A stretch of DNA of 64,000 nucleotides, from positions 334,965 through 398,964 of the forward strand of contig CBDDHX010000005.1 of NCBI GenBank assembly GCA_965228585.1, given 5' to 3'. Within the stretch, counting starts at the first letter, position 1; each line of letters begins with the position of its first letter. This DNA comes from Caldilineaceae bacterium. Its GTDB lineage: Bacteria > Chloroflexota > Anaerolineae > Caldilineales > Caldilineaceae. This document shows positions 42,687 through 60,010 of the stretch, one piece after another. The notes below the pieces were generated by a model. That model searched no databases. It was not told where the DNA came from and saw nothing but the letters and a program-made list of their open reading frames with translations. Position numbers and translations under genes: made by a program.

Positions 42687-45572
42687 CTATTTTTTCGGCA
42701 GTGCCACTGGAGCAACTTCCTCTTGGACACCCAACTGTCGAGCCATCCAGTCGCCCGCGACCGGCATGACTTCGCGCGCGCGGCTAAAGCAGCAATGTTC
42801 AACATCGTCCAACAGCCACAGTTCCGTTGCGCCCTGTGCCCACGCCTGAATCCGTTCAATCTGTGCCACGGGCACAATGTGATCCAGCGTGCCGTGGATG
42901 AGAAAGAGTGGCTGCGTGATGGCCCGTGGCACGGTTGCAAGGTTGATTGGCCCCTGCGGATCCATCAACTGTTCCGGCGCATCAAAACCAAAGAGACGGG
43001 CGGTGACGAGTTGATTGCGGGGCGCCAAGTTGCGCGTGGTGCTGCCATCAAATGGGCCGCTCAGGCTGATACAAGCGGTGACGCGTTGCTCCATGGCCGC
43101 GGCGCGCAGCGCCATGTAGCCGCCCAAGCTCACCCCAAAAAGACCGATCCGGGTGGCGTCAACTTCCGCAACTTGGCACACCAGATAGTCAATGGCCGCG
43201 CCGACCACGCTTTCAAAGTCACCGTGCATGAGGGCGCTATCGACAAGCTCACCTTGGCCCGGGCCATCAAATGCAAGGACCGAGATGCCGCGTTCCAAAA
43301 AGTATTCGCCCCACTGATGCAGCTCCGCCTCTTTGGAAAATTCAAAGCCGCCCAGCAGGATAATACAAGGCGCGCCCGGCTGGGCGACCCGCAGATAGCC
43401 GGGCAGCTTCATCCCCCGATAGGGAATGGCGACCCGTTGGCAGCGCGGTCTACTGAGCGTGGCCAACTGCCGATAGGCGTGCCAACATTTTTCCTGGTAA
43501 TGCTTGCGTTGCTCCACATCAATGAACATCTGGACAAAGTGATAGTAGTTCACCACCATCTGCCACCACTGGCAGGCAGATTGAGTTCGATGCGCAGCCG
43601 CAGCTGACTGGGCGGCACGCTCATACCGTTCGGCAAATTTCACCAGTTCGGCACTCCAAGAGGCTGGATCGTGGGCATTTTGGTTCGCCTCTTGCAGATC
43701 GTAATGGCTGATCCCAAAGGCGGCTGCGCGTAGGTGGAGCAGCGACACATTGGCACGCAGATGCTGCACTGAATAGCCAATGTTCTGATCGGATTTGCGA
43801 CTTGCTGCTTTTGCCGCACGGCTTTGTGGGGCGCGTTGATCATAGATCCATTCGGCCAGCGCACGGATGCTTTGCAGCGCCTCTAGCTCGAGCTCCTCGT
43901 CATAAAATTCGAGCTGGAAACGCTCTTTGATCAAGGCTGTGAGCCGGACCAACGCAATCGAATCCAGATTCAGCCCTGTGTTGAGCAGCGCCATCTCTGG
44001 TTCAATTTCGGCTGGTGCCATCTGGATCTCCAGCATATCGACCAAAAGATGGGTTAGACCATCGATGATGTCATCGACAGAAGTGATCGACTTTGCTGCC
44101 CGCGGGCTGACAGGCTCCTCAACAGAAAGTTGGGCCTGTTGAATCAGCGCCTGTTGATCCACCTTGCCGCTGTGGAGCAGGGGCAGCGACGCCATGACGC
44201 GCACTTCATCGGGAACAGCATAACGGGGCAGCTTGTCGAAGCAACGACGGCGCACCTGCTGACTGTTGAGGGCAACACCTGGCTCTGGAATACAGAAGGC
44301 AAACAGCGCTTGACCCCGTTCCGTCTCTTGGCCAGAGGCCACCACGACTGCCTGGGCAATCTCCTCGAACTCTTCCATGATCCGCTCAATATCGGAGAAC
44401 ATGACCAAATAGCCGTTGCGGTTGGTGCTATTTTTAGCACGCCCCACCAGCCGAATGCTCCCTGTATCTGTCACTGTGGCCAGATCGCCGGTGTCAAACC
44501 ACGCACCTTCTCTATTCTGTTGCAGCCAAGTGCCGGTTTCATCCACGTAGCCCACAAAGCTAACCGTATTCTGACATTGCAGTTCCCCAACACCCGTTGC
44601 GGGGTCCGGCTGCTGGATCTGCAGGTTGGCCGTTTGCAGCGGTTGACCAATGGTCGTGAGCTTGCTCTCGAGTGGATCGTGGGGAGCGCAGCCCGCCACG
44701 GTCCCCAATTCCGAACTGCCATATATGTTGATGAGGGTGCCACCAATCTGCTCATCAAAGCGGCGGAACAGGTCATCACTGATCCGCTGTGCGGACGTGA
44801 CCACCACCTTGTATGCGCGCGGCGTCGAGAAACCAGGCAGCAGCTGGTCGCAGATTGTCGGTGTCAGGAAGGCCACGTTGGGCTTGAATATTTTTTCGCG
44901 GGCAAAGTATTGCAGATGATTGCTGTTGCTTTGCAGATCGATCGACGCGCCCGCGGCAAACGCAGGCAGAAATGCACCGGCCAACCCGTAAATGTGGGCC
45001 AGCGGGATCGGGATCGCGACTCGGTCGCTGGCCTCGAGCGCGTATTTTTTGACGCAATTGTGCGCGTTGCCGATAAAGTTGTCGTGGCTGTGAACGACAA
45101 TTTTGGCGTTGCCCATGCTGCCGGACGTCCGCAGGTAGATGCACCGTGGTCCATGATCTGTTCCCGCGGGCAAGGGCTGGAACGCTTCATTCGCCTCAAC
45201 GGTCAGCAAGCGTACGGGATACTGTGCCCCATTAGCATCTGCATCAGCGCTGCCCGCATCGATCCGCACGCGGTAGCGGCAAAATTGGGGCACCGGTGTG
45301 AGCGCTGCCTGATTTTGCGCTACCGGGGGCAGCAGGAAAAAGCTGATGCCTCGCTCCATGAGCGCGAAGATCGTCAACGCGGCGGGGATCGCGTTGGGAC
45401 ACTCCAGCGCAAGGCAGTCGGTTGCCTTGACACCCTGGGCCAGCAGGTGGTCGCCAACCGCGGCCACCAACGACGTCAGTTCGGCATGGGATACGGTGAA
45501 CTGACCGTCGGTAATCAGACTGCTTCGGGCCGTCTCTGCCGAGGCGACCCGGTCTAGAAGTTGAGCAAACAT
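42687..45572 (-). CDS. Tri-domain enzyme: acyl/aryl-AMP ligase (adenylation), carrier protein (phosphopantetheine site), alpha/beta-hydrolase
   Basis: AMP-binding core LRTSGSMGNAKIVVHSH with later GDLATV...GRAKN. The carrier motif is GLNLDSIALVRLTALIKERF. The hydrolase nucleophile elbow is GLFGVSLGGYMA, with HGTLDHIVP near the C-terminus. Confidence 0.8.
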   Translation of the reverse strand: MFAQLLDRVASAETARSSLITDGQFTVSHAELTSLVAAVGDHLLAQGVKATDCLALECPNAIPAALTIFALMERGISFFLLPPVAQNQAALTPVPQFCRYRVRIDAGSADADANGAQYPVRLLTVEANEAFQPLPAGTDHGPRCIYLRTSGSMGNAKIVVHSHDNFIGNAHNCVKKYALEASDRVAIPIPLAHIYGLAGAFLPAFAAGASIDLQSNSNHLQYFAREKIFKPNVAFLTPTICDQLLPGFSTPRAYKVVVTSAQRISDDLFRRFDEQIGGTLINIYGSSELGTVAGCAPHDPLESKLTTIGQPLQTANLQIQQPDPATGVGELQCQNTVSFVGYVDETGTWLQQNREGAWFDTGDLATVTDTGSIRLVGRAKNSTNRNGYLVMFSDIERIMEEFEEIAQAVVVASGQETERGQALFAFCIPEPGVALNSQQVRRRCFDKLPRYAVPDEVRVMASLPLLHSGKVDQQALIQQAQLSVEEPVSPRAAKSITSVDDIIDGLTHLLVDMLEIQMAPAEIEPEMALLNTGLNLDSIALVRLTALIKERFQLEFYDEELELEALQSIRALAEWIYDQRAPQSRAAKAASRKSDQNIGYSVQHLRANVSLLHLRAAAFGISHYDLQEANQNAHDPASWSAELVKFAERYERAAQSAAAAHRTQSACQWWQMVVNYYHFVQMFIDVEQRKHYQEKCWHAYRQLATLSRPRCQRVAIPYRGMKLPGYLRVAQPGAPCIILLGGFEFSKEAELHQWGEYFLERGISVLAFDGPGQGELVDSALMHGDFESVVGAAIDYLVCQVAEVDATRIGLFGVSLGGYMALRAAAMEQRVTACISLSGPFDGSTTRNLAPRNQLVTARLFGFDAPEQLMDPQGPINLATVPRAITQPLFLIHGTLDHIVPVAQIERIQAWAQGATELWLLDDVEHCCFSRAREVMPVAGDWMARQLGVQEEVAPVALPKK

Positions 45573-45593
45573 TGCGTGTGCCTTTTCTGCGTC

Positions 45594-47222
45594 TTAGCGA
45601 CCACCGTACAAGCTAGCCAAGCGATCCGAGCCATAGGTCTGCCAGCTGTGGGTTGGGTTTTCCTCGTCTTCCCGATCCATGCGGATCTCCCAGACCACTT
45701 CCGGCGGATTGGTGTGGGCGACTTCGCGAATGCGAGTCTGAAAGATCAAATCATTCATGGTCATCCAATTCATCTCATCGGTGATTTGGTTGCGGGGGTA
45801 GCAGAAGCCATAGGTTACCAGCACATTCTCGGTTTCGGGCAGCCAATCGGTGTCACCCATCGCGTAGGTGACCATGGCGTCGCCCTCGACTGTATCCGAT
45901 TCCCAGAGTTCGCGAATGGTCATCTTGTCGGTATCTATCGCATATTCGACGGCTCGGCTATAGGATTGATTGGGCGGAAATGGGGGCGCAAAGGGGCGTG
46001 CGCGATAGTTGCCATTATCAAAAAGCATAATCGTGCCCCGCGGTGTAACCGAGGGCGCATGGGTGTGATAGGGCCAACGCATGTCCTGCTCCGGTTGAAA
46101 GAGCTTCTGCTGTAGCTCTTCCGACCAGTCGGTTGGCTCACCCAGGATCCACTTGATTTCACCTGTTTTGCGGTCGATCTTAAAGAGGGCATCCTGGTGG
46201 CGCAGCGAGATGATCAACGAATCATCAGATTCATCCAGCCACAGCCCATTGCCGTGGGTCCAATCGACGAAATCTTCGAAACCGTGCATGAGCCAGTAGA
46301 TGTAAAGTGCCTCGTAGCCCAGGCGATAAGGATCCAGCCAGTCAAAGGCTTTCCAGCGCCAGACAATGGTGCCGTCCCGTTCGAATTCAATAATTTCATC
46401 GCCCATGATCTTCTTGCGCTTGCGCGGCGCGTTGGGATCTTTTTCACTGGACCAATAGTCATCGATGACTTTGGAGACGGTGGAGAAGGCAATGATATTA
46501 CCATTGGGCAGTTCATCAATGAAGTGATGGAAGGAGAGGGTGTCAATGTCGATCACATGGTCGGCGCGGGCCGGGAATGGGCTGCCTGCCGAACGCCACG
46601 CGGCCACCTCATTGCCCAGCAGATCGATCTCGATAATGTGGTGATCCAGGGTCAGGTACATAATGTTGCCATTGCGTAGCTGGGCAAAATCACTAAAGCA
46701 GATGTCCATCTTGTGATACCAGACAACCTCGCCTTCACTATCAAGCGCCACCAAGAGACCGAAAAAGAGCAGGAAATTCCTTTCCGCTTTGGTCAGCTCG
46801 GTCAACTGCCCAAAGCGGCGGCGGCGGATGCTCGTCAGTGTAATGCCCGGCTCCATCCTGTCCGGTTGGCTAACCGTGCAGCGCAGCGGTGGGAATTCCA
46901 GCTCATCTGTCGGGAGCGGCGGCGTGGTGTAGGTGAGCGTTTCGGGGGCCTGCACCACATTGCCATCCGCGTCTTGAATGGAGACCGTGAGTTTGTGGGT
47001 GCGGTCGGGGCGCATGCCGACAATGGGCAGCCCCTCGCTTGGGTTCTGGTCAAAGGTGATGCTCCACTGTCGGTCGCCATCGACAAGCTCGATGGTGGTC
47101 TGCACAGCGCGGTTGGCAGAAAAGTGGAGCACAGCCGCAAGTGGCACGGTGGGATTGGGATTTTGGAAGACCGCGGGCGATTCGGTGAATGCCAGCGTCT
47201 CTTCTTGCGTGGTTGTGAACAT
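45594..47222 (-). CDS. Arylsulfotransferase (ASST, PAPS-independent aryl-sulfate sulfotransferase) family protein, without an obvious signal peptide
   Basis: The N-domain pattern is FQNPNPTVPLAAVLHFSANRAVQTTIELV...GLPIVGMRPDRTHKLTV. Propeller motifs are DWTHGNGLWLDESDDSLIISLRHQDALFKIDRKTGEIKWILGEP. Confidence 0.7.
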   Translation of the reverse strand: MFTTTQEETLAFTESPAVFQNPNPTVPLAAVLHFSANRAVQTTIELVDGDRQWSITFDQNPSEGLPIVGMRPDRTHKLTVSIQDADGNVVQAPETLTYTTPPLPTDELEFPPLRCTVSQPDRMEPGITLTSIRRRRFGQLTELTKAERNFLLFFGLLVALDSEGEVVWYHKMDICFSDFAQLRNGNIMYLTLDHHIIEIDLLGNEVAAWRSAGSPFPARADHVIDIDTLSFHHFIDELPNGNIIAFSTVSKVIDDYWSSEKDPNAPRKRKKIMGDEIIEFERDGTIVWRWKAFDWLDPYRLGYEALYIYWLMHGFEDFVDWTHGNGLWLDESDDSLIISLRHQDALFKIDRKTGEIKWILGEPTDWSEELQQKLFQPEQDMRWPYHTHAPSVTPRGTIMLFDNGNYRARPFAPPFPPNQSYSRAVEYAIDTDKMTIRELWESDTVEGDAMVTYAMGDTDWLPETENVLVTYGFCYPRNQITDEMNWMTMNDLIFQTRIREVAHTNPPEVVWEIRMDREDEENPTHSWQTYGSDRLASLYGGR

Positions 47223-47321
47223 GGTCCTTCTCCTGGAACTTTTTCAACGGAGTCATGAGGATTACACAGCGTTTGCTCTGCATGATCCTCTACCCCCTGT
47301 TTACTTTTGGCGTAGCAACAA

Positions 47322-48968
47322 TCACGCGGCCACAGCGGGGATCTTCTCCGCGGCGTGGGCCGCCGTGCCATTGGTCGAAAACGCGGAGTGCCCCTTCTGA
47401 CCCACTGTTGGTAGAGAACCCGCCGCGACCGCCGCTTGGATGGCACCGGTTGCCACCAACTCGTGGACATTGGCAATTAGCGGAGCCAGATAGGCATCAG
47501 TTTCGAGGAAGGGAACTTTGGTGCGGATCAGGTTGTAGACTGGCGCGGTGCCTGCGCCCAATCGCGTGGGTGGAATCCCCATTTCTTGACAGCGAAAATC
47601 GATTCCCTGGGCCGCGACCAGCAATTCGATCGCTACAATCTGCTCCACGTGTTCCAATATCTGCTCCAATTGACGGGTGGCAATGGTCCCCATGCTGACA
47701 TGGTCCTCATAGTTGGCGCTGCTCGGGATCGTATCCGCGCTGGCCGGATGGGCCAACACCTTGTTCTCGCTGGCCAGCGAAGCCGCGGTATAGTGGGCGA
47801 TCATCATGCCGCTCTCTACGCCCGCATCTTTCGTCAGGAACATGGGCAGCACGCCGCTGTTGGAATCGGCATCGACCAGGCGCGCGACACGCCGTTCGCT
47901 CATGTTGCCCAAATCGGTGATGGCGGTTTTGGCAGCGTCCATAGCGAGGGCAAGCGGCTCGCCGTGGAAGTTGCCAGCGCTGATCACGTCGACGATCTCG
48001 ACACCGGCCCCATCTTCTTCCACGAAAATAAGCGGGTTGTCGTTGACCGCATTGAGTTCAATATCGATACACCGCTTGGCGTGGTAGACTGTGTCGCGCA
48101 CCGCGCCGTGAACCTGGGGCACACATCGCAGGGTATAGGGATCCTGAACGTTGCTGCTCGTTCTGGCCCGCAATAGTTGACTGCCTGCCAACAGCTTGCG
48201 CAAGAAGGCCGCGCATTCAACCTGGCCTGGATGGGGTCGCGCGGCGTGAACTCGCGCATCGTACGCGTGATCGGTGCCGTTGAGCGCCTCCAGCGACATG
48301 GAGGCGGCCACGTCTGCAACATAGAGCAAGTTGAGTGCCCGATGGACCAGCAGCGCACCCAAACCAGCCATGAGCGTGGTGCCATTTAGTAGGGCCAGAC
48401 CTTCTTTGGCCTGCAATTCAACGACTGCAAGATTGGCGTGGCGCAGAGCCTCTGCACTGGGGATCCGTTCGCCGTCCATCATCACTTCTCCCTCGCCGAT
48501 CAGTGCCATTGTTAGATGAGAGAGGGGCGCCAAATCGCCGCTGGCCCCCAACGAACCCTGGCTGGGAATGCAGGGGTGGATGCCACAGTTGAGCATGTCG
48601 AGCAGCGTCTGGATCACGGTGGGGCGGATCCCCGAATAGCCCAGGGCCAAGGTATTGGCGCGCACGAGCATCATGGCGCGCACGGTCTGCTCGTCCAGCT
48701 CGGGACCCACACCGGCCGCATGGCTGCGCACCAGGTTGAGTTGGAGCTTTTTGACCTTCTCAACGGGAATGATTTTGTCGCGCAGACGACCAAAGCCGGT
48801 TGTAATGCCGTAGGCCACGGTGCCATCGGCAATGAGTTGATCCACCGCGGCGCGCGAGCGCTCAATCTTGGGCAGCGTCTCAGGATCGAGAGTCACACTC
48901 ATGCCATTGGCAACCGCCACCACATCTGTAATTTGGAGTGAATCTCCGGAGATTTTCAACATAATCAA
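47322..48968 (-). CDS. hutH: Histidine ammonia-lyase (MIO-dependent)
   Basis: MIO triad context GSLGASGDLAPLSHL, YGITTGFG, and the selectivity pair LVRSHAAGVG (Ser-His as in HAL, not Phe-Leu or His-Leu as in PAL/TAL). SANYEDHVSMG is also present, and overall similarity to Pseudomonas HutH is high. Confidence 0.85.
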   Translation of the reverse strand: MIMLKISGDSLQITDVVAVANGMSVTLDPETLPKIERSRAAVDQLIADGTVAYGITTGFGRLRDKIIPVEKVKKLQLNLVRSHAAGVGPELDEQTVRAMMLVRANTLALGYSGIRPTVIQTLLDMLNCGIHPCIPSQGSLGASGDLAPLSHLTMALIGEGEVMMDGERIPSAEALRHANLAVVELQAKEGLALLNGTTLMAGLGALLVHRALNLLYVADVAASMSLEALNGTDHAYDARVHAARPHPGQVECAAFLRKLLAGSQLLRARTSSNVQDPYTLRCVPQVHGAVRDTVYHAKRCIDIELNAVNDNPLIFVEEDGAGVEIVDVISAGNFHGEPLALAMDAAKTAITDLGNMSERRVARLVDADSNSGVLPMFLTKDAGVESGMMIAHYTAASLASENKVLAHPASADTIPSSANYEDHVSMGTIATRQLEQILEHVEQIVAIELLVAAQGIDFRCQEMGIPPTRLGAGTAPVYNLIRTKVPFLETDAYLAPLIANVHELVATGAIQAAVAAGSLPTVGQKGHSAFSTNGTAAHAAEKIPAVAA

Positions 48969-49076
48969 ACTTTCCTTCGGCTATCGGCGAGTGACAGTTC
49001 ATGCAATCTATCTAGCGTGAGAGCAGAGTGGAAATCACATGTTGGGTGTGCAGCAGCCCTACCCCCAACCGTGAAT

Positions 49077-51371
49077 TCACGATTGCTCCTTTTCCTTGAT
49101 CTGGAGGCGGGGGAGCAAAGCATTGCCCACACCGACCCCCAACCCCAGCTGACAGAGGACAATGACCGATAGGAGACCAAAGTGCATAAAGAGTAGCCCC
49201 AAAAAGCTCAGGAGATGCGGCGCAATCACGAGGCCCAGGGTCCTGCCCATGTTGCGCTTGAAATCAGCAGCCAGATCAAAGAGCTTCAGAAGCTTATTCA
49301 AACTTTGGTCCATCAAAACAACTTGCGCTGTATCGGTGGCAACGCTGGAGGCACCCTGCAATGAAATGGAGACGGCGGCTTTCTTGAGCGCAATGGCGTC
49401 GTTGATGCCGTCACCGATATAGCAGACGGTCTTGCCATTCTGTTGCAGCTGATCGATAATGTTCGCTTTGTCTTCGGGCAAGGTTTCGGCAAAGTAGTGA
49501 TCGACCCCCAAATCGTGGGCCAGTTTGCGTGTGGGTGCTTCATGATCGCCAGAGATGATGTAGGTCGATTGGATGCCCCGTTGGCGCAACCCCTGAATGA
49601 TGGCTCTCGCTTCGGGGCGCACGGTCGGCTCTAGTTCGATGGCACCCACCACCGCTCTATCCACCGCAATGAGAATGAGCGAGTGGCCCTGTTGGTGGGC
49701 ACGCTCTTTGGTGGCTTCTGCCGATGTTGGGAGCGTCAACGCTTCCAGCTCCATAAAGCGCAGACTGCCCACCCGCACGGTCAACTGACCGATGAGGACC
49801 GTGAGCCCATAGCCGACTTTGTAGGCTGCCTCTGCAATTTCGGGCAGGACCAATTGACGTTCCTCGGCTTCTTCCAGAATCGCATGGGCCACTGGATGTG
49901 TTTGGCGATACTCGGCAGCGGCTGCAAAGACCAAGATCTCATCTTCTGTATATTCCGACCAGGTGTGCACATGGCCAACGTGGGGCTGCGTCTCGGTGAG
50001 CGTGCCCGTCTTGTCAAAGACAACTGTGTCCACGTCGTTGAGCAGCTCTAGCACGCGGCCATCTTTGAGCAAGATGCCATGTTTAGAGGTCACATTCAGA
50101 TAGCTGAGGATGTTGATGTAGGTGGCCACAATTCCCTTATATTTGGGATGGGCCAACAGGAGCGCCCACGAACCAACTGGAAAGAGCGGTAACATCAATC
50201 CTGCCAATGCCAGCGTGGGCACCACTGATTTGTCGGCCAAATCTTCCACCCGCAACTGCATCCCGGTCTTAAAATTCATGGTCTGATTGAGCACTTTGCC
50301 AATCTGAGCTGCGGTCGTCTCCTCGCCTGTCTTTTCGACCAAAATTTGAATCTTGCCAGTTGCCACCATGGTGAGGGCAAAGACCTGGTCATCCGGTCCC
50401 TTTTCAGCAGGTTGGGATTCGCCCGTTAATATATGTTGGTCAACCGAAGCAAACCCTGCGGTAATCCGCCCATCAATGGGGATGGTCTCGCCAGCATTGA
50501 CGATCACGACATCTCCGGTGCGCAAGCTCTCGACCGGCACCTCGACTTCAGAGCCATCGACAATGGACCAAGCCGACGTTGGCTGTTGCCGAAAGACATC
50601 CACCAAGCTCCCCTTGGCATCCTCTCGCACCCGCCGCATGAGCCGCTGGGCATAGTTCGCCAGAAAGATATTCAGGCTCAGCATGAAGGTAAAGATGGCA
50701 TGCCCCGCCAAGATGGCACCTGCCCCCAAACCCAGCCCAACCACCACGGTTGCGAGGATGATCAGATCCACAGAGGTTCTGCGCTCATGAAAGAGTTGAT
50801 TGTAGGCCCTGCGCACCATCTCTGGCGACCCGAGAATCGTAAATATCAGGCTGACCACGGCAAGCGGTTTGACGATAAAGCCAACCACTGACAAACCGAG
50901 GGCAATGGAGGATAGCTTGAAGGTGTGCTGGGTCATCAGATTCAGCGCGCTGGATTGTGGTGGAGGCTGGGGCGCTTCCCCTTTGGAAAGAGCCGCAGGC
51001 GCGCCGTTGCCCGCACGGCCGTGCCCATTCAAGAGACCATCCAACTTTGTGACAAACGGTTCCACCGTCGTTTTGGCGCTATCCCAAATGTGGTGGTCCC
51101 TGAGTGACGGCAACAGCTCTGACGGCAACAGCTCTGACGGCAACAGCTCTGACGGCAACAGATCATGTAGTGCTGAAAGAACCTGTGGCGAGCCATTCTG
51201 AACCGAGCCGTACTGTGGCGAGCCATTCTGAGCCGAGCCATTTTGTAGTCTGGCGGAGGCTCGCTGCCCGTCTGAGGTCAGTTGGCGGATCAACGGCTGC
51301 TTGAGCGCTCGGATTCTGGAGCCCTTTGGGGCAGCACGGTAAATTTTGTCGGTAAGTGTATGTAGTCGCAT
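49077..51371 (-). CDS. P-type ATPase, P1B-like topology but lacking the CPx metal motif and an HMA domain
   Basis: TGES, DKTGTLT and GDGINDA motifs are present. By eye alignment, the position of CPC reads AHPK. The N-terminus contains 15 bp in-frame repeats (SELLP x3, NGS.Q x4). Confidence 0.75.
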   Translation of the reverse strand: MRLHTLTDKIYRAAPKGSRIRALKQPLIRQLTSDGQRASARLQNGSAQNGSPQYGSVQNGSPQVLSALHDLLPSELLPSELLPSELLPSLRDHHIWDSAKTTVEPFVTKLDGLLNGHGRAGNGAPAALSKGEAPQPPPQSSALNLMTQHTFKLSSIALGLSVVGFIVKPLAVVSLIFTILGSPEMVRRAYNQLFHERRTSVDLIILATVVVGLGLGAGAILAGHAIFTFMLSLNIFLANYAQRLMRRVREDAKGSLVDVFRQQPTSAWSIVDGSEVEVPVESLRTGDVVIVNAGETIPIDGRITAGFASVDQHILTGESQPAEKGPDDQVFALTMVATGKIQILVEKTGEETTAAQIGKVLNQTMNFKTGMQLRVEDLADKSVVPTLALAGLMLPLFPVGSWALLLAHPKYKGIVATYINILSYLNVTSKHGILLKDGRVLELLNDVDTVVFDKTGTLTETQPHVGHVHTWSEYTEDEILVFAAAAEYRQTHPVAHAILEEAEERQLVLPEIAEAAYKVGYGLTVLIGQLTVRVGSLRFMELEALTLPTSAEATKERAHQQGHSLILIAVDRAVVGAIELEPTVRPEARAIIQGLRQRGIQSTYIISGDHEAPTRKLAHDLGVDHYFAETLPEDKANIIDQLQQNGKTVCYIGDGINDAIALKKAAVSISLQGASSVATDTAQVVLMDQSLNKLLKLFDLAADFKRNMGRTLGLVIAPHLLSFLGLLFMHFGLLSVIVLCQLGLGVGVGNALLPRLQIKEKEQS
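51105..51164 (-). repeat. In-frame 15 bp tandem repeat x4 (tgacggcaacagctc) in the ATPase N-terminus; a second 30 bp x2 repeat lies at 51183..51245
   Basis: Read directly. It encodes SELLPSELLPSELLPS, and the second repeat encodes NGSAQNGSPQYGSVQNGSPQ. Confidence 0.85.
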
Positions 51372-53575: not shown

Positions 53576-53812
53576 ATTCAGGACATACGCACCGAGAAGA
53601 GCGTACCCGTGGCGAGCAGGCCACGCGCTTGCTGGCTCTTCTCGACAAGTTGCGTACGTCCAAATTTAACAATCTACATGTTCGTCAATTCACGGCTATT
53701 GTTGCGCCACAGGCCACTGAGCAACCCAAGCAGCAGCACTGTGAACAGTGCACCAAGCAGAGGCCACGTGCTCGGTTGCGCAAGCCACCGTTCACTCTGT
53801 TCGCGCATCTTC

Positions 53813-54907
53813 TCATTGCACCGTCAGCCCTGTCATGTGGGGGAAGCGAGCTTGCACGCCCCAGCCGCCAGGTGGGATGCCTTTTGATACGGCTAACCAG
53901 ACTTCGTTCTCCCCCTTTTGCAGCGGAAGGTAGAGATCGTCGTAGTAGCCAATGGTGCCCAGGAAACGATAGTCTCTGGTAAAGGCGCTGTCGTTGCCAG
54001 CAAAGAGCAGCCGGTCGTTGAGATAGACCTTGACCTTGTTGGCAAAGCCAAGCTGTAACGGTCTGACCTGTTCGCGCTCCGATTGCACCGTCACGCGGGC
54101 AAAGAGGGTATCCTGCTGGCGACCAAAGGTGGCAAAACGGGCCAGGTTAACGAGCCCGGTTGTTTCGGTTTCCGCATGTGTCCAGCTGCGGCTCTCTTTG
54201 ATTGCGGCGGGCAGACGCACTTGCCCCAGCAGATCTTTTTCGGCAAAGGCATCAGATACCTGCCAGGAACGGATCGTGCCCGCTGGTGCCGGGGCAGGGA
54301 TCTTGGCTGTTCCCCGGAGGGGCGGATGATCCATTGCCATGTATTGGAAGTTGGCAAAATGGGCCGCGGGGTCAGACGGTATCGGCTCGACTTCCAGCCC
54401 AATTTTGCCCCGCAAGAGGCCATGCTTCAGTTCGTTGACAAAGAAGAGTGGTTCATCCATATCCTGCACGTAGACCTCGGCATGCAGCCCGGCGACCACG
54501 ATTTTGACGTGAATCCACTCGTTAAAGGGAAACTCAATCGATTTGCCGTAACCCTCGCCGTGGTAGAGCTGCCAACCGGATACGTTGTTGAAGATGGGGG
54601 TGTACTGGGTGGCATCTGGGTTGCCTGATTGGTGGGCGCGCATGTAGAAACGTTCGTAATTCTGCATGTCTTGCAAGCGCCATATTGCGCCAACCATTTT
54701 GCGCGTCGCGTCGAAGGCCACATCATATTCGATAATGCCATTGGTAAAATCAACATTTTTGACCACGGCGTGGCCCGATTTGAGAAAAAGACTTTGCTGG
54801 CCCAAATATTCTTCCACGCGATTCGCTTGGGCATGAAAGACCCATTGATCAGAATCAAAGGGGATCAGGTTCACGGTGTTACTCCTTTGGGTTGGGGTGC
54901 AGGCCAA
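53813..54907 (-). CDS. Hypothetical protein, probably two beta-sandwich (DUF1080/LamG-like) domains
   Basis: The weak pattern FTNGIIEYDVAF...WIHVKIVVAGLHAEVYV...GKIGLEV resembles concanavalin-like domains. This is not a confident family call. Confidence 0.4.
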   Translation of the reverse strand: MACTPTQRSNTVNLIPFDSDQWVFHAQANRVEEYLGQQSLFLKSGHAVVKNVDFTNGIIEYDVAFDATRKMVGAIWRLQDMQNYERFYMRAHQSGNPDATQYTPIFNNVSGWQLYHGEGYGKSIEFPFNEWIHVKIVVAGLHAEVYVQDMDEPLFFVNELKHGLLRGKIGLEVEPIPSDPAAHFANFQYMAMDHPPLRGTAKIPAPAPAGTIRSWQVSDAFAEKDLLGQVRLPAAIKESRSWTHAETETTGLVNLARFATFGRQQDTLFARVTVQSEREQVRPLQLGFANKVKVYLNDRLLFAGNDSAFTRDYRFLGTIGYYDDLYLPLQKGENEVWLAVSKGIPPGGWGVQARFPHMTGLTVQ

Positions 54908-55067
54908 TCAACTTGATGGCCCTTGTTGCAATGGGGATAAAGCTCGGTAAGTCTGCTGGCGCCGCCTGGCATGCAATCACGTCGCGGTCAATGGCTGATA
55001 CACGGGACTAGCATTCCTGAACCGCGCTGACGAATGTCCAAAGTCCGGTTTACCAGCTGATTTCAGG

Positions 55068-55745
55068 TCAGCGTACCGCCGCTGGTTCCCCTGCAAATGT
55101 GTAGCCAAAGCGCTCAATATCTGTTCGGAAATGTTCTGCAACGAGCTGTTCTGTTTGGGAAGTATAGTAGTCACGATAGTTGCGGTGAGCAGAGCGATTG
55201 ACATGGGGCAGTGCGGCAGCAATGTGGAGCCGGTCGCAGACTTGGGCAAAGTCTTGGGCCAGGGATTCATAGCGGCCCACAAAATCGACCAGCAACTTTC
55301 CATCAGCAGCGGTCAGCACGGCGCTTTGCTCTTTGGTCGCCCCTTTGGGATAGGGGTTGGGGGTCTTGATAACCCACTGCAGGTAAGCGTCAAAGCTTCC
55401 CAGTTGTTCCACGATCTGATGTTTACGATGGGTTGGCTCGCGCAAAATAAAGTGATACATCGAAACCTGCCAATCCCATGGATTGCGCACGAAGGCAAAC
55501 TTGTAGTAGCCATCAAATATTTCCCGTGGCAGATACTTTTGCGCGTCACGGGCGGTGGCATGGAGCAGCAGCGCTTCCCACACTTCATACATGGGGTTGG
55601 GGCTGCCTGCTTTTGCTCTGGGTGGACGTTTGATCTTGAACCGTTCCGGCTCTTGCCCATATTCTTCCAAGACGGTGCGCATGCTCATGCCGCCAGTTTT
55701 GGCAACGTGGAAGAAGATGAAACGGTGCGAGTGTGAAATGATCAT
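55068..55745 (-). CDS. Sulfotransferase family protein (Sulfotransfer_2-like, PAPS-dependent)
   Basis: FIFFHVAKTGGMSMRTVL (PAPS loop), FAFVRNPWDWQVS and GRYESLAQDF are typical. The start at MIISHS (55745) avoids overlap with the upstream gene; the track starts at 55880. Confidence 0.7.
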   Translation of the reverse strand: MIISHSHRFIFFHVAKTGGMSMRTVLEEYGQEPERFKIKRPPRAKAGSPNPMYEVWEALLLHATARDAQKYLPREIFDGYYKFAFVRNPWDWQVSMYHFILREPTHRKHQIVEQLGSFDAYLQWVIKTPNPYPKGATKEQSAVLTAADGKLLVDFVGRYESLAQDFAQVCDRLHIAAALPHVNRSAHRNYRDYYTSQTEQLVAEHFRTDIERFGYTFAGEPAAVR

Positions 55746-55758
55746 GCGGAACTGTGCC

Positions 55759-56667
55759 TCATCTATGATTGGCCGCGTGGGTGGAATCGTGGGCAACAAA
55801 CTCAAGCTCTTGACCGCTGAGCTGGTGAATGATTTTGGTGTGAAACGAACCGTCACCCGGGTTGTGTACGGGTGCGTCATAAGGCAATCGATAGTTTGGA
55901 TCCTCTGTGGCCACGGCTTGCAGATCGTGATGGAGCTGCATCACGTCCTCTATCTGTTGAATGTGAAAGGCATAGTGCCAGATTGGATCCGAGTTAAAGA
56001 GCAGGGTGGCGCGCTGCCTATCTTCTGCCACGAGCCCGCTACGCGTGACCAAGCAGTTGAAATTGCGGTGGGTCAGCTTTGGTTTTCCGGCGTCCAGAAA
56101 GAGATCGACTGGGCGATGAATGTCAAAGAGCTCGAGCATTAGCCGCTGTCCATCTACCACGATCCAGATGCGCATGATTTCAGTATAGGCTGCCACGCGC
56201 TCTTGAAATTGGGGCGACGCCGGAAAGCGCAGCAGATCGCTAATTGCGAGATCGCACTGATGGGTACGGCGCGTTTTGCTGATCCAATGATCCATGCCGT
56301 GGAGTACGAGGTCGAGCGGTTCGTGAATTTCAAAGCCCAAGTGGTAGATTGAATCCTCTACCAGTGCAGCTGTAATTTGGGGCAGAAGCTGGCTCTGCTT
56401 GGCAAAAAAGTGACCCAACACAACCTGTGCTCGCTGTGCTTTGACTTCCAGCAGCGCATGAGTCAGCTTCTCCAGATCGAGCTTGATGATTTCCAGCAGC
56501 CGCTGTTTGGTCCGTACGTTTTTTTGCGCCAGCAGGTCACGGTAGGTCTCCAACAGCAATTCGTAGCGCTGGTGGACTATCTTGATATTCACTGTACCCC
56601 TCATCTCGGGTGTTGCACTTGATGCAAGCAGACCGGCCATTTGGTGACCAAGCCTGTCACAGGCCAC
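55759..56667 (-). CDS. Hypothetical protein, possibly VOC (glyoxalase/dioxygenase-fold) superfamily
   Basis: Repeated beta-alpha-beta-like modules (HLGFEIHEP..., LMLELFDIHRP, WHYAFHIQQIEDV, QELEFVAHD). The call is weak. Alternative starts lie at 56640 and 56604. Confidence 0.35.
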   Translation of the reverse strand: MACDRLGHQMAGLLASSATPEMRGTVNIKIVHQRYELLLETYRDLLAQKNVRTKQRLLEIIKLDLEKLTHALLEVKAQRAQVVLGHFFAKQSQLLPQITAALVEDSIYHLGFEIHEPLDLVLHGMDHWISKTRRTHQCDLAISDLLRFPASPQFQERVAAYTEIMRIWIVVDGQRLMLELFDIHRPVDLFLDAGKPKLTHRNFNCLVTRSGLVAEDRQRATLLFNSDPIWHYAFHIQQIEDVMQLHHDLQAVATEDPNYRLPYDAPVHNPGDGSFHTKIIHQLSGQELEFVAHDSTHAANHR

Positions 56668-56732
56668 TTATCGTACCCATCGCCAGCTGCCGGGTACGGC
56701 TCAATTTCTCGCTGATTTCGACGATTGTGAGG

Positions 56733-58016
56733 TTAATTCGCCATTGTCATCAGTTTTCTGGCCATACTTTTACCCGCGTAGTCGCCATATAGGATGCCTT
56801 TTCTGGTCAGGTGCAGCGCGTCGTCCGACACGGTGATGAAGCCATTCTGCACCAGATCCTCCATGGTGTCGGCACAGAGCGATTCTAGCTTGACCCCATA
56901 TTTGTGCTCAAAATCGCGCAGGTTAAAGCTCACCAGCTTCATGGTTAGCACCACGTCACGGATCATGCTGTCCCAGACGGTAAGCCGATGACCACGCTGT
57001 ACGGGCAACTCGTCGTTGGCCAGCATCTTCTGGTATTTGTTTTCGTCGTTGGTATTCTGGAAGAGATAGTTGTCCAACCGCCCAAAGGCCGATGTACCAA
57101 AAGCGTAGATGTCATCACCGCGGAAGACGCTGGGCGAGTGAACATGGACATTTTCGCCATTCTTGGTAAAGGTATAGAAGCTCCAGGGGACATAGCCGGC
57201 CGCTTCCAATTCATCCATGGCGTACTCCATGTAGCGCAGCTCCTGATCATCATCAGGTAGCTCTAGCGTCTTGTTCTTGATGCCACGATAGTATTCAGTG
57301 TTGGTATAGAGCTCGGTTTTGTAGACAGTGATGCTTTCCACCGCGGATTCGATGGCGCGGCTGACACTGTGGGCCCAGGTTTTGTCCGTCTCACCAGCCA
57401 GGCCACTCATGAGATCAATGTTGATGGCAACGGGGTTTTTCTTGGCAATGCCAATGGCTCGCAAGACTTTCTTCTCATCATCGAGACGATGGGAATTTTT
57501 AATGATCTCGGTATCAAAAGATTGCACGCCCATGCTCATCCGGTTGGCCCCCATCTGCATAATGGTTGCCATCTTTTCTTCATTCAGCGTAACGGGCTCT
57601 CCTTCGACTGTGTATTCGGCATCCTGGATGTTGTAATATTTGCGCAACGTCTCGTCGATCTGGAGCAGTTGGTCGTTGGGCAATAGGCTGGGCGTGCCAC
57701 CCCCCAAATAGATCGAGATTACGGGGCGATCCTGTAGGTGGTAGATTTCCGAGGCCAACGCCAATTCGCGACAGAGGGCATCCGTATAAGCCGCCATCCG
57801 TTTCTGTTTCTCTTCACCACGCAGGTTAATGGTCTTATAGAAGCAATAGCTACAGCGCTGAATGCAGTAGGGGGTATGTAGATAGAGATTGAGTGGCTTC
57901 CGGTTCTCCATTTCGGCCGCGGAGAGCCGTTTCCACTGCATAAAATTGGGATAATTGGTGATAAAGCCTTTGCGGGCTGGATCCCAATAATCGTTTTCTT
58001 GCCGAGTGTTAATCAC
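56733..58016 (-). CDS. Radical SAM enzyme, HemN/HemZ-like (coproporphyrinogen III oxidase family)
   Basis: CxxxCxxC cluster motif HTPYCIQRCSYCFYK, GGGTPSL, and RMSMGVQSFD. The gene is noticeably more AT-rich than its neighbours. Confidence 0.8.
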   Translation of the reverse strand: MINTRQENDYWDPARKGFITNYPNFMQWKRLSAAEMENRKPLNLYLHTPYCIQRCSYCFYKTINLRGEEKQKRMAAYTDALCRELALASEIYHLQDRPVISIYLGGGTPSLLPNDQLLQIDETLRKYYNIQDAEYTVEGEPVTLNEEKMATIMQMGANRMSMGVQSFDTEIIKNSHRLDDEKKVLRAIGIAKKNPVAINIDLMSGLAGETDKTWAHSVSRAIESAVESITVYKTELYTNTEYYRGIKNKTLELPDDDQELRYMEYAMDELEAAGYVPWSFYTFTKNGENVHVHSPSVFRGDDIYAFGTSAFGRLDNYLFQNTNDENKYQKMLANDELPVQRGHRLTVWDSMIRDVVLTMKLVSFNLRDFEHKYGVKLESLCADTMEDLVQNGFITVSDDALHLTRKGILYGDYAGKSMARKLMTMAN

Positions 58017-58075
58017 AGCGCCTACTCCTTTATTCTATGAAGCTACTGAGGATTCGTTTACGTCGTGTTTGGAGC

Positions 58076-58148
58076 CGATCCTGAAATTCGATTGTGGTGC
58101 GTAAACCACCTCTAGCTGGCTACGTCGCCGCAGAGACTTTCAGGACAG
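58076..58148. repeat. Family B palindromic element (inverted orientation) between the ACP and radical SAM genes
   Basis: gatcctgaaattcgattgtggtgcgtaaaccacctctagctggctacgtcgccgcagagactttcagga. Confidence 0.8.
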
Positions 58149-58178
58149 ATACTTGCTCTGGGGTTGAGGTCGCGCCAA

Positions 58179-58442
58179 CTAGGCCGGAACGGGCGCTTTG
58201 TGTTCTTCGATCCACTGGCTCAATGTCTGTATGTTGGCGAAAGCGTCCATATCGAGATCATCCTCATCAAACTCCACCGTAAATTTTTCTTCGATCAATG
58301 TGATCAACTCAACGATGGCAATTGAATCGAGCCCCAGACCATCTTCCAACAACGAAGCATCGGGTTCGATCTCAGCCATTTGAATATTGACGTCGAGTTC
58401 TTCGGCAATCAGCTGCTTTAATTGGTCAATTGTGCTTTCCAT
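58179..58442 (-). CDS. Acyl/peptidyl carrier protein
   Basis: An 87 aa acidic protein with phosphopantetheine site GLGLDSIAIVELITLIEEKF. Confidence 0.85.
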   Translation of the reverse strand: MESTIDQLKQLIAEELDVNIQMAEIEPDASLLEDGLGLDSIAIVELITLIEEKFTVEFDEDDLDMDAFANIQTLSQWIEEHKAPVPA

Positions 58443-58474
58443 GAATCACCTTTCTTTACTTGAATGAGTTCGAT

Positions 58475-60010
58475 TTATGCCGTCATGGCAGCTAGCGCTT
58501 GCCGGTCGACTTTTCCACTGGGCAAGAGCGGCAGGGCATCAAGAATCAGCACTTCATCTGGAATCGCATGAGCGGGCAGCAGATCGAAACAGTGTTGCCG
58601 TAGTTGTTTGGGCGTGGTTTGCTGGTTCTGTTTGATCACACAGAGAGCCGCGAGTGGCGCATCCTCCTCGTGCCTGCTTTTTCGCGTGGTACCGGCGGCC
58701 TGCACCACAACCACTTGCTGAATGAGCGGAATCTGTTCCATCTGTCGTTCAATGTCTGCCAGTTGAATCAGATAGCCGCGACGATTTACGCTATCACCGC
58801 TCCTCCCCACCACCTGAATGAAACCGCTCCGCTGCTCTTTGGCCAGATCGCCAGTGCTGTACCACTCATTGGCCAAATGTCGATGGAGCCACTGCCCCGC
58901 TTCATCCACATATCCTTCAAATCCATGGGGGTGCTGGCAGCGCAAGGCACCCATTCGTTCGTTGGCGTGCGTTCCGTCAGCCGTGGCTCCGTGCGAGCCA
59001 GGTGGGTCGTGGGTCTCAATCGTGAGTTCTACCCCCCTCATGGGTGAGCCAATGGTTGTCGCTTTCAAATCCTGGTGGGCATCGGGATCGCAAGCCGCAA
59101 TGGCCCCCATCTCCGAACTGCCATATTGGTTGACCAGACAGTGATTCACACGGTCGTCGAAATCCCGAAAGAGGGTTTCATTGATGCGCTGACCGGAGGT
59201 GACAATGACCTTGTAATTTGTCCGTGGTCGCTTGAAGCCCTTGAGCAGCATGGCACAAATAGCGGGCGTAATGAAGGCAATCGTCGGCTGGAACGCTCGT
59301 TCCCGCGCCATGTAGCGCAGCAGATTGGTCTTCTCTTGCAGATCAATCGAGGCACCGACCAACACCGCAGGTAGAAATTCGGCACCGAAACCATACATGT
59401 GGGCAAGGGGGACAGGGATCACGGCTCGATCCGCACTGGTAAAGTTGTATTTGACGACACAGTTCTGTGCGTTTCCAAGCAGCTTCTCCTGCCGGTGGAC
59501 AACGAGCTTGGACGCGCCCATGCTGCCAGAGGTGCGCAACATGAGGTGCCCTGGCCCAAGCAGGGAGAGATCTGCCGGTGGTCGATAAGCTGGGTTCTCT
59601 TCAAGATGCAAGAAGTTGGTGGGATCTTGCAGCCATTCGCGCGCGCTTTGCTCGGTGGCAGCCGCTTTTTCTGCTTTCGACATCTGTTTGACCACCAAAC
59701 GAAGCTGACAAAATTGGGGAATCGGCTTCCACTCCGATGCATGATCATCTTGCTCGGATGGCGGCAGCAGCACCATGCTGACTTCTTGTTGAAGAAGATA
59801 GAGGAGCGTCAATGCACCCGCTACCGTGTTGGGGCATTCAACGGCAACACAACCAGGTGTGCAACCACCATGTTCGGCTAAAAAGTCCCCAATTGATACC
59901 AGCAGCGTCGGTAACATTCCATAGGTGATCGTTGCCGTGCCATCCGTGACTATATTGTCGCGGCTTTCCTCTGCCTCTGTTATCTGTTTAAGCGTGGCTG
60001 CCAACACCAT
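58475..60010 (-). CDS. Acyl/aryl-AMP ligase (adenylation enzyme), paralog of the N-terminal domain of 42687..45572
   Basis: LRTSGSMGASKLVVHRQ and GDLAKEQRSGFIQVVGRSGDSVNRRGY. The start at MVLAATLKQ (60010) aligns residue for residue with the paralog N-terminus. The track start at 60046 is a GTG inside a family A repeat. Confidence 0.8.
   Translation of the reverse strand: MVLAATLKQITEAEESRDNIVTDGTATITYGMLPTLLVSIGDFLAEHGGCTPGCVAVECPNTVAGALTLLYLLQQEVSMVLLPPSEQDDHASEWKPIPQFCQLRLVVKQMSKAEKAAATEQSAREWLQDPTNFLHLEENPAYRPPADLSLLGPGHLMLRTSGSMGASKLVVHRQEKLLGNAQNCVVKYNFTSADRAVIPVPLAHMYGFGAEFLPAVLVGASIDLQEKTNLLRYMARERAFQPTIAFITPAICAMLLKGFKRPRTNYKVIVTSGQRINETLFRDFDDRVNHCLVNQYGSSEMGAIAACDPDAHQDLKATTIGSPMRGVELTIETHDPPGSHGATADGTHANERMGALRCQHPHGFEGYVDEAGQWLHRHLANEWYSTGDLAKEQRSGFIQVVGRSGDSVNRRGYLIQLADIERQMEQIPLIQQVVVVQAAGTTRKSRHEEDAPLAALCVIKQNQQTTPKQLRQHCFDLLPAHAIPDEVLILDALPLLPSGKVDRQALAAMTA

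Follow-up and report, generated by a model that had tools for sequence, protein, structure and literature searches.

We analyzed a 64,000-nucleotide stretch of DNA from a Caldilineaceae bacterium (Chloroflexota; GenBank assembly GCA_965228585.1, contig CBDDHX010000005.1, positions 334,965 to 398,964 of the forward strand), referred to here as the window. It carries a biosynthetic gene cluster that combines two acyl-AMP ligases and two carrier domains with a HemN-like radical S-adenosylmethionine (SAM) enzyme, a histidine ammonia-lyase (HAL), a 3'-phosphoadenosine-5'-phosphosulfate (PAPS)-type sulfotransferase, an arylsulfate sulfotransferase (ASST) and a P-type ATPase. An initial annotation, made from the sequence without database searches, had proposed twelve tightly spaced genes as an orphan cluster. 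The list of open reading frames (ORFs) in the window contains all twelve, each on the minus strand, and the intergenic gaps of 1-237 bp agree with the spacing described. As summarized in Table 1, the families first proposed were obtained again for all twelve genes with Pfam and NCBIfam, or with AlphaFold and Foldseek in the case of the VOC-fold protein; the beta-rich protein, for which the call is weak, is taken up below.

Table 1. Genes of the cluster, with coordinates in the window and the evidence for each assignment.
Feature	Coordinates	Strand	Evidence
Acyl-AMP ligase 1	58475..60010	-	AMP-binding + AMP-binding_C
Free acyl carrier protein (ACP)	58179..58442	-	PP-binding, E 1.7e-12
HemN-like radical SAM enzyme	56733..58016	-	Radical_SAM + HemN_C
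VOC-fold protein	ORF 55759..56667 (302 aa); likely gene 55759..56592	-	AlphaFold2 model, Foldseek
PAPS-type sulfotransferase (Sulfotransfer_2, ST2)	ORF 55068..55880; likely gene 55068..55745	-	PF03567, E 1.9e-12
Beta-rich two-domain protein	53813..54907	-	sub-threshold DUF1080/3keto-disac_hyd, E 0.005
Stand-alone thioester reductase	52298..53575	-	TIGR01746, 292 bits (cutoff 213); NAD_binding_4, E 9e-58
Methyltransf_19 methyltransferase	51373..52233	-	PF04672, E 1.7e-23, N-terminal half only
P1B-like P-type ATPase	49077..51371	-	E1-E2_ATPase + Hydrolase; TIGR01525, 390 bits (cutoff 346)
Histidine ammonia-lyase (HAL)	47322..48968	-	hutH TIGR01225, 635 bits (cutoff 539)
ASST-type arylsulfate sulfotransferase	45594..47222	-	PF05935, E 1.8e-72; Arylsulfotran_N PF17425, E 6.7e-8
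Ligase 2-carrier-alpha/beta hydrolase fusion	42687..45572	-	multiple Pfam domains
SBP_bac_5, Opp/Nik-type solute-binding protein (probable cluster member)	41016..42584	-	Pfam
ABC importer permease	39736..40680	-	BPD_transp_1
Opp-like importer permease-ATPase fusion	37568..39559	-	OppC_N, BPD_transp_1, ABC_tran, oligo_HPY
712-aa protein with C-terminal Sulfotransfer_3	35374..37512	-	PF13469, E 1.5e-25

Synteny in relatives was one of the checks that had been suggested for the cluster, and the arrangement of the genes is conserved in three other assemblies: JGI 3300055001 (loci L130/L131), ENA ERZ27251178 (L086/L127) and GCA_041736995.1 (L129/L128). Loci L130, L086/L127 and L129/L128 share 10-12 families with the window, arranged in the same order, with protein identities of 39-85%. 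All twelve families occur in this order in L130, except that the P-type ATPase lies further upstream; L130 also has a SnoaL gene and a sulfatase in addition. Identities between L130 and the window are 63% for ligase 1, 78% for the ACP, 80% for the radical SAM enzyme, 62% for the VOC protein, 76% for ST2, 59% for the thioester reductase, 61% for the Methyltransf_19 protein, 72% for HAL and 81% for the ASST. Additional genes in the relatives encode homoserine-dehydrogenase-like, TauD, ACT/DAHP-synthase-like and Sulfotransfer_3 proteins, and L127 also has ATP sulfurylase and APS kinase, its own supply of PAPS. The flanks of these loci do not match those of the window: L130 starts with trp genes, L086 is preceded by a type I polyketide synthase (PKS), and in the window the upstream neighbor is an unrelated ABC ATPase. 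This upstream gene (735 aa, 60977-63184) and the downstream VTT/DedA gene were considered as cluster members and rejected, since neither has a homologue in any related locus.

The original extent of twelve genes is correct as far as it goes, but the cluster is larger. Locus L128 ends with the same SBP_bac_5/permease/permease-ATPase importer as follows ligase 2 in the window (48-56% identity). The SBP_bac_5 homologues lie beside the cluster in L128 (48-50%) and beside a related cassette in a Chloroflexaceae metagenome-assembled genome (MAG), L002 (46%); in the same two loci the permease is 54-55% identical and the permease-ATPase fusion recurs at 48-56%. Homologues of the Sulfotransfer_3 protein are found in L127 (57-58%), in L128 (64%) and in the Methylococcaceae locus L005 (43% over 574 aa). 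Because the importer and Sulfotransfer_3 genes travel with the cluster in relatives, we extend it downstream to 35374.

Shared orientation is a poor guide to the unity of this locus. All ORFs of at least 180 aa between 24050 and 63184, unless nested in a longer ORF on the opposite strand, lie on the minus strand, and the co-orientation of the twelve genes is therefore uninformative. This favors a reading in which separate units merely adjoin one another: a cassette from ligase 1 to ST2, an ATPase for metals, a lyase of histidine catabolism, and genes that scavenge sulfate (ASST, sulfatase-like protein and Opp importer). The cassette does exist without the block of HAL, ASST and ligase 2, and the position of the ATPase shifts between loci. 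Such a patchwork is nevertheless very improbable, given that the gene order recurs in three other assemblies at no more than the identities above and with unmatched flanks, that the tri-domain ligase 2 protein occurs only with HAL and ASST, and with the cassette where the locus is long enough, and that the HAL has no hutU, hutI or hutG beside it and the gaps are short. Since the synteny is conserved, the cluster is more than a chance neighborhood.

The gene content points to thiotemplate chemistry of a reduced kind. Neither a ketosynthase nor a condensation domain had been noticed in the first reading, and the scans agree: PF00668 (condensation) and ketoacyl-synt had no match in the twelve genes or in 26 other larger window ORFs searched with Pfam and NCBIfam, a set that leaves out about half a dozen shorter or overlapping ORFs of 205-417 aa. 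Chalcone/stilbene synthase-type proteins (type III PKS) were likewise not found in the scanned ORFs. The statement that this is not a textbook PKS, nonribosomal peptide synthetase (NRPS) or ribosomal peptide locus holds in that it has no ketosynthase or condensation domain, but the cluster is not unrelated to thiotemplate logic. It contains AMP-binding and PP-binding domains, a TIGR01746 reductase above cutoff and a GxSxG hydrolase, which are the features of NRPS-like adenylation-thiolation-reductase (A-T-R) and adenylation-thiolation-thioesterase (A-T-TE) systems, and its cassette feeds NRPS and PKS machinery elsewhere. The A, T and R functions around ligase 1, termed line 1 below, are encoded in trans and not on one polypeptide. 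The literature on this gene combination yielded no description, in line with the first reading, which recognized no characterized pathway in it; broader literature on genome mining of class C radical SAM enzymes and on sulfated NRPS products provided nothing relevant. Taken together, the locus is probably a conserved, NRPS-like thiotemplate cluster without a condensation domain that makes a small sulfated metabolite from two carrier-held carboxylic acids.

The two ligases are paralogs, as had been noted, with 43% identity over 501 residues. The ligase 1 ORF opens at a GTG codon at 60046, and alignment with the paralog favors the ATG at 60010 as its start. On reading the sequences, the A4 regions are PLAHMYG in ligase 1 and PLAHIYG in ligase 2, of the acid-ligase and not the amino-acid type; the marks of an amino-acid-activating adenylation domain (Asp235, FDxS motif) are absent, and the TIGR01733 score of 95 bits is well under the cutoff of 317. 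Ligase 1 reaches no curated family threshold. Its closest PDB matches are NRPS adenylation domains and oxalate/malonate ligases, with E values of about 1e-20 to 1e-12, and orthologs 62-63% identical lie beside an ACP and a radical SAM enzyme in L085, L086 and L130. The free ACP has the phosphopantetheine serine motif GLDSI, and its orthologs are 76-80% identical and occupy the same position. As chorismate-lyase-like and Trp-halogenase-type genes adjoin sister cassettes, we infer that ligase 1 loads this ACP with an electron-rich aryl acid.

Ligase 2 is part of a tri-domain protein in which the adenylating domain is followed by a carrier domain (motif NLDSI) and a FrsA-like hydrolase with the nucleophile motif GVSLGG. 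The typical thioesterase family PF00975 is not among the 16 Pfam matches of this protein. The ligase-ACP-hydrolase architecture is rare, forming nine clusters at 90% identity (67-100% identity) in 5.8e9 protein sequences. It always adjoins HAL and ASST, and it co-occurs with the cassette as well in loci that are long enough (the window, L130, L086/L127 and L129/L128).

The lyase that accompanies this protein is of the histidine type. It has the MIO triad ASG at residues 142-144, the Ser-His selectivity switch in the sequence LVRSHAAGVG and a TIGR01225 score above cutoff. Tyrosine ammonia-lyases carry His-Leu at the switch position and phenylalanine ammonia-lyases Phe-Leu. A lyase of either kind that feeds a phenol to the ASST was considered, and it was rejected because the Ser-His switch and the hutH score indicate a HAL. 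The HAL motifs are identical in the three orthologs checked (L086/L127 and L128), which are 74% identical to the window protein, and the orthologs lie in the same biosynthetic context as in the window. Genes for hutU, hutI and hutG were not found in the 38 window ORFs scanned. Because the lyase is of true HAL type and no other hut genes are present, urocanate is a plausible building block. HAL, ASST and ligase 2 are contiguous in all four of the long-architecture loci, and their joint inheritance makes ligase 2 the likeliest enzyme to activate urocanate. We know of no precedent in bacteria for a thiotemplate line loaded with urocanate.

The upstream part of the cluster has a far wider distribution. 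We regard the first six or so gene families as a mobile cassette, which in other loci supplies NRPS or PKS machinery. It consists of a ligase, an ACP, a HemN-like radical SAM enzyme, either a VOC protein or one resembling chorismate lyase, a sulfotransferase and a P1B-like ATPase without the CPC motif. Carriers of the cassette belong to the Chloroflexota, the Gammaproteobacteria (Beggiatoa, Methylococcaceae) and the Bacteroidota, and incomplete forms occur in the Myxococcota and the Acidobacteriota. Its neighbors are often condensation, adenylation and thiolation domains of NRPSs, PKS genes or flavin (Trp-type) halogenases. In Beggiatoa alba B18LD (L001) it is limited to ligase, ACP, radical SAM enzyme, ST2 and an Rv2949c-like protein. 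The Chloroflexaceae MAG (L002) and the Methylococcaceae locus (L005) hold the cassette with an Rv2949c-like protein, while GCA_022842065 (L004) has in addition the P-type ATPase, a halogenase and an NRPS. A metagenomic locus (L085) combines VOC, ST2 and ATPase with a halogenase and an NRPS. Only ligase, ACP and radical SAM enzyme are present in Kofleriaceae (L006), where the contig stops past the radical SAM gene, and the Acidobacteriota locus (L007) has a beta-rich protein, radical SAM enzyme, ACP and sulfotransferase. In Gaetbulibacter jejuensis (L008), the genes encode a NusG-like protein, an Rv2949c-like protein, DUF6734, a condensation domain, ligase, radical SAM enzyme, ACP, sulfotransferase and a glycosyltransferase. 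Among the loci sampled, cassettes with a radical SAM gene carry either the VOC protein or the Rv2949c-like chorismate pyruvate-lyase, never both. Some loci without the radical SAM gene also have the VOC protein, together with ligase, ACP, reductase, ST2 and ATPase. One of these, L112, has ACP, reductase, ST2, a methyltransferase, an adenylation-methyltransferase-thiolation module, a condensation domain, ligase, VOC and ATPase, and lies beside resistance-nodulation-division (RND) efflux genes. It is conceivable, and we suggest it tentatively, that this unrecognized cross-phylum cassette makes a new class of sulfated, radical SAM-modified aryl units, used alone or supplied to NRPS and PKS systems; the VOC proteins would then be a new family of thioester isomerases, and the ATPase, having lost its metal site, would move an organic molecule and not a metal ion.

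The radical SAM enzyme is very highly conserved. Its homologs (37-88% identity) lie beside these two genes in every locus examined, on 12 distinct contigs of several phyla; hundreds of homologs at 50-88% identity are spread across phyla, and mean column identity across phyla is 68%. A peptide-pattern scan of genome contigs returned mostly generic HemW genes, with L005-L009 as the informative loci, and a lookup of the exact protein sequence gave no match. The protein has the motifs CIQRCSYC (CxxxCxxC) and GGGTPS, and it combines PF04055 and PF06969 in a biosynthetic context, as do class C HemN-like enzymes. The four-cysteine HemN motif CxxxCxxCxC is incomplete, with Phe in place of the fourth Cys (CIQRCSYCFY). 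Scores fall below the equivalog cutoffs for HemN (TIGR00538, 184 bits against 325), HemW (187.6 against 205.4) and ChuW/HutW (218 against 400), the last being the best NCBIfam match. Against the PDB, HemN (1olt) scores 103 bits and NocN 54 bits. By these sequence criteria the enzyme is of the class C HemN-like type and forms a subfamily of its own; the activity expected of that class would be methyl or methylene transfer with two SAM molecules. Our best guess, by analogy, is that it C-methylates or alkylates a group held on the ACP, because published HemN-like enzymes act on carrier-tethered aryl or ACP-bound enoyl thioesters.

The VOC-fold protein belongs to a small, unnamed family, with 86 representatives among 1.84e9 proteins in an exhaustive HMMER search, and has no sequence match in Pfam, NCBIfam or the PDB. 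The source genome's gene call (P0121) is 277 aa long, placing the start near 56592. An AlphaFold model built on a 40-sequence alignment reached a predicted local distance difference test score (pLDDT) of 92.6 and has an N-terminal helical domain. The paired beta-alpha-beta-beta-beta modules that define the VOC superfamily are present in the model. Its Foldseek matches include BphC, glyoxalases and HPPD, and the best is methylmalonyl-CoA epimerase (6bu2, E 7.6e-5). Invariant residues H84, E154, H206 and E262/E264 sit on predicted strands beta1, beta4, beta5 and beta8. The metal ligands of glyoxalase I and methylmalonyl-CoA epimerase lie on the four corresponding strands; within the superfamily, a set of four ligands typifies the isomerases and epimerases and not the 2-His-1-carboxylate dioxygenases. 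The model therefore suggests a metal tetrad of H84, E154, H206 and E262 or E264, of the glyoxalase I/methylmalonyl-CoA epimerase type, and the protein probably belongs to the isomerase/epimerase branch. It was also considered as a diverged Rv2949c-like chorismate lyase, which was rejected because BLASTP finds no similarity and the fold is that of the VOC superfamily.

Gene fusions tie this family to its neighbors. P0285, a metagenomic protein of 715 aa, is a natural ligase::VOC fusion whose ligase part is 49% identical to ligase 1 over 506 aa, and several family members are fused to a PP-binding domain (ACP::VOC), including that at 10001-11077 of L088/L089. These Rosetta-stone fusions link ligase, ACP and VOC functionally and suggest that the VOC enzyme acts on or beside the thioester. 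The ACP::VOC fusion of L088 is solitary: its neighbors are aspartate-kinase-like and FTCD (formiminotransferase) genes, and no ligase lies within 10 kb. In L090 (GCA_024279945.1, 8939-20547) a family member lies amid four sulfotransferase genes, Wzx/Wzy-type genes and glycosyltransferases, and the family is linked through this locus to sulfated polysaccharides as well.

This last arrangement bears on an alternative in which the cluster belongs to the cell envelope or primary metabolism, placing a sulfated aryl or lipid head group on a glycolipid or polysaccharide, with the ATPase acting in a flippase-like manner and no diffusible secondary metabolite formed. The glycosyltransferase and NusG-like gene of the Gaetbulibacter cassette fit such a role, and so does the very strong cross-phylum conservation of the radical SAM enzyme. 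Rv2949c-type lyases feed phenolic glycolipids in mycobacteria. We consider this quite improbable, because the phyla are patchily represented, the variable partners (NRPS, PKS, halogenases, RND efflux) are typical of secondary metabolism, and the window cluster has no glycosyltransferase or polysaccharide genes.

Several enzymes of the cluster could release or decorate carrier-held groups. The thioester reductase has the NAD(P)H-binding motif GSTGLLG (GxTGxxG) and a YxxxK motif, and its orthologs are 59-67% identical in the syntenic loci and 37-44% identical in VOC cassettes without the radical SAM gene. The Methyltransf_19 gene lies 1 base from the ATPase gene and has an ortholog 61% identical at the same position in L130. 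ST2 likely starts at MIISHSHRF (55745) and contains the 5'-phosphosulfate-binding motif HVAKTGG; orthologs 50-78% identical occur in cassette loci of several phyla. The ASST, of a PAPS-independent type, combines a beta-propeller (PF05935) with an N-terminal Ig-like domain (PF17425), no signal peptide is apparent in it, and its orthologs (80-85% identical) always lie between HAL and ligase 2. In the 712-aa protein, Sulfotransfer_3 is preceded by an N-terminal extension of about 420 aa with a weak cupin/Asp-Arg-hydroxylase-like match (E 0.009), and the protein may be a hydroxylase-sulfotransferase fusion. This long form is shared with L005, while the L127 and L128 forms are short.

The protein first described as a double beta-sandwich is indeed beta-rich, but the sandwich itself is weakly backed, by the domain match in Table 1, a weak internal repeat and a single-sequence AlphaFold model that is unusable (pLDDT 35). 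It is 75% identical to a stand-alone gene in L129, 44% identical to a gene adjacent to the radical SAM gene in the Acidobacteriota MAG (L007), and over 350 aa it shares 41-42% identity with the C-terminal half of the L127 and L128 sulfatase fusion proteins. The sulfatase lies within the cluster in relatives, and the window keeps only the C-terminal beta-rich part as a separate gene. A choline-sulfatase/arylsulfatase-like gene, below equivalog cutoffs, is present at 19606-21204 on the plus strand, 14 kb past the cluster edge at 35374.

The P-type ATPase has the DKTGT phosphorylation site and scores above cutoff for TIGR01525, which places it in the P1B subfamily. The CPC/xPC metal motif is replaced by AHPKYK, and the Pfam scan detected no HMA domain. 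All 15 cassette-linked ATPase ORFs (about 11 distinct sequences, as four loci are duplicate copies of the same contigs) keep DKTGT and lack CPC/xPC; the residues at the CPC position include AHPKYK, AHFGMR, ANFSEV and GCNYVI. The ortholog in L128 is 69-70% identical. Two tandem DNA arrays at 51105-51242, one of a 15-bp unit in 3.8 copies (100% identity) and one 15/30-bp array, encode low-complexity peptides SELLPSELLPSELLPS and NGSAQNGSPQYGSVQNGSPQ near the N-terminus, before the first transmembrane segment.

The transport genes raise the question of whether the product is a metallophore: a sulfated chelator carrying the imidazole of urocanate would be exported and re-imported as a metal complex by the Opp/Nik importer, with the P1B-like ATPase handling the metal. 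Among the accessory genes of the cassette, that for a P1B-family ATPase is the most constant, SBP_bac_5 importers, of the nickel/opine-metallophore family, flank the cluster in the window, L128 and L002, and the HAL of the cluster would provide the imidazole ligand. Mycobacterial isonitrile-lipopeptide chalkophore loci contain a ligase, an ACP and an NRPS-R with flanking Ctp ATPases, a layout analogous to that seen here. Against this, the cassette-linked ATPases all lack the CPC/xPC site and a detectable HMA domain, the enzymes for catechol, hydroxamate, thiazoline or isonitrile chelating groups are absent, and most versions of the cassette have no HAL. On this balance a metallophore seems rather unlikely.

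For the thiotemplate cluster that we favor, the families suggest two converging lines. In line 1, ligase 1 would adenylate an electron-rich aryl acid and load it on the free ACP. In the sister cassettes this acid would probably be 4-hydroxybenzoate from the Rv2949c-like chorismate lyase, with flavin halogenases alongside. The tethered acyl group could then be C-methylated or alkylated by the class C-type HemN-like enzyme, and the metal-dependent VOC enzyme may isomerize or epimerize the alpha position by chemistry of the glyoxalase I/methylmalonyl-CoA epimerase type. The stand-alone thioester reductase would free an aldehyde or alcohol, to which the PAPS sulfotransferase would add sulfate. In line 2, HAL would make urocanate and ligase 2 would load it on its own carrier domain, from which the fused FrsA-like hydrolase might off-load it, either by hydrolysis or, in the manner of NosK, by transferring the acyl group to the product of line 1. 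The hydrolase would thus join or release the two lines. Further sulfate may be relayed or added by the ASST and the PAPS enzymes, the Sulfotransfer_3 protein among the later sulfating enzymes, the Methyltransf_19 protein may methylate, and the P-type ATPase and Opp-like ABC system may then move the product or a related solute. Any single chemical step of this scheme is held with much lower confidence than the general proposal.

Parts of this logic have parallels in known systems. Hydroxybenzoate starters are loaded on ACPs in the xanthomonadin (XanB2/XanA2/XanC) and ambigol (Ab5/Ab6/Ab8/Ab10) pathways. As in the sister cassettes, these systems bring together chorismate lyase, aryl-acid:ACP ligase, free ACP and flavin halogenase, but they lack the HemN-like enzyme, VOC protein, sulfotransferase and P-type ATPase, and the window has VOC in place of the lyase and no halogenase. 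Another precedent is provided by NosI/NosJ/NosK/NosN, the module for the indolic-acid side ring of nosiheptide, in which an aryl acid is adenylated and held on a carrier, a HemN-like radical SAM enzyme acts on it while tethered and an alpha/beta-hydrolase transfers it (PMC10114718). The same four families (ligase, carrier, alpha/beta-hydrolase and class C HemN-like enzyme) occur in the window, with several differences: there is no thiopeptide or ribosomal peptide context, the radical SAM enzyme is distant from the solved NosN-type NocN (54 bits), a FrsA-like hydrolase is joined to a second ligase-ACP, and the reductase, sulfotransferases, VOC enzyme and P-type ATPase have no Nos counterpart. 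In jawsamycin biosynthesis, the HemN-like cyclopropanase Jaw5 acts on ACP-bound enoyl thioesters (PMC10114718). Urocanoyl and cinnamoyl thioesters are alpha,beta-unsaturated thioesters of that kind; Jaw5, however, partners an iterative PKS, whereas the window enzyme adjoins ligase 1 and the ACP and not the HAL/ligase 2 block, and some of the cassettes that carry it have no lyase.

NRPS-like A-T-R and A-T-TE enzymes, such as carboxylic acid reductases and the A-T-TE synthetases for aryl or keto acids (RalA, atromentin synthetases), share with the cluster adenylation, thiolation and release by reduction or a hydrolase without a condensation domain. In the window, by contrast, line 1 consists of three separate proteins with tailoring enzymes between them, the hydrolase resembles FrsA and the S9 family, and both ligases are distant from characterized adenylation domains. 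Caprazamycin-type sulfate relay passes through an aryl sulfate, and the analogy suggests a relay of the same kind for the window cluster. In the caprazamycin/liposidomycin system, a two-step sulfation involves the PAPS sulfotransferase Cpz8 and the ASST-type Cpz4, with the type III PKS Cpz6 (PMC13426309). The window likewise has a PAPS sulfotransferase and a cytoplasmic ASST-type enzyme in one cluster, but no type III PKS or nucleoside scaffold, and any phenolic carrier would be a product of the ACP line. The sequence of adenylation, thiolation, tailoring and release is thus known thiotemplate chemistry; what is unusual is how many phyla the cassette spans, that a new VOC family occurs in fusions with its partners, that an ATPase without a metal site is a constant companion and that a HAL feeds a thiotemplate line.

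Several observations weigh against the proposed scheme. Its substrates, intermediates and product are deduced from family membership and gene neighborhood. Ligase 1 is far from any characterized ligase, and a non-aromatic acid substrate is possible. The window itself lacks both a chorismate lyase and a halogenase, which leaves the aryl-acid argument to the sister cassettes. The radical SAM enzyme matches the HemN, HemW and ChuW models better than it does NocN, a methyltransferase of solved structure, which leaves methylation as no more than a possible activity. ASSTs normally require a phenolic donor or acceptor, and urocanate is not a phenol. VOC family members also occur away from ligases, in L088 and L090. 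The scheme leaves the role of the ATPase unexplained, and scans for promoters and terminators were at chance level and do not indicate an operon structure.

If the interpretation is correct, the locus defines a widespread, unstudied family of sulfated natural products. It would also give first functions to a HemN-like radical SAM subfamily (50-88% identical across phyla), to a VOC family absent from Pfam and to a clade of P1B-like ATPases without CPC. A P1B-type pump with a substrate other than a metal would be of interest for transport research. The presence of the cassette in the culturable strains Beggiatoa alba B18LD and Gaetbulibacter jejuensis JCM 15976 makes these proposals directly testable.

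The remainder of the window includes other features of note. In the upstream 735-aa protein (60977-63184, minus strand), only a C-terminal ABC ATPase domain is recognized, and the first 550 residues have no Pfam match. An Rfam scan identified one tRNA and nothing else, the HIP1 motif is not enriched, and the window proteins looked up are singletons at 90% identity. At 23851-24805, a tRNA-Lys(UUU) gene adjoins an ORF whose similarity to REP-associated tyrosine transposases is weak and below threshold, and the minus-strand run of 24050-63184 starts there. The 433-bp gap between the VTT/DedA and Band 7 genes contains a 16-bp tandem repeat in three copies at 96% identity (34212-34259). Two adjacent pentapeptide-repeat proteins are encoded at 28409-31616 on the minus strand, the second in an unusual fusion to a Peripla_BP_5/6 solute-binding domain. 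A 903-aa protein at 5324-8035, also on the minus strand, combines leucine-rich repeat, fibronectin type III and clostripain (Peptidase_C11) domains.

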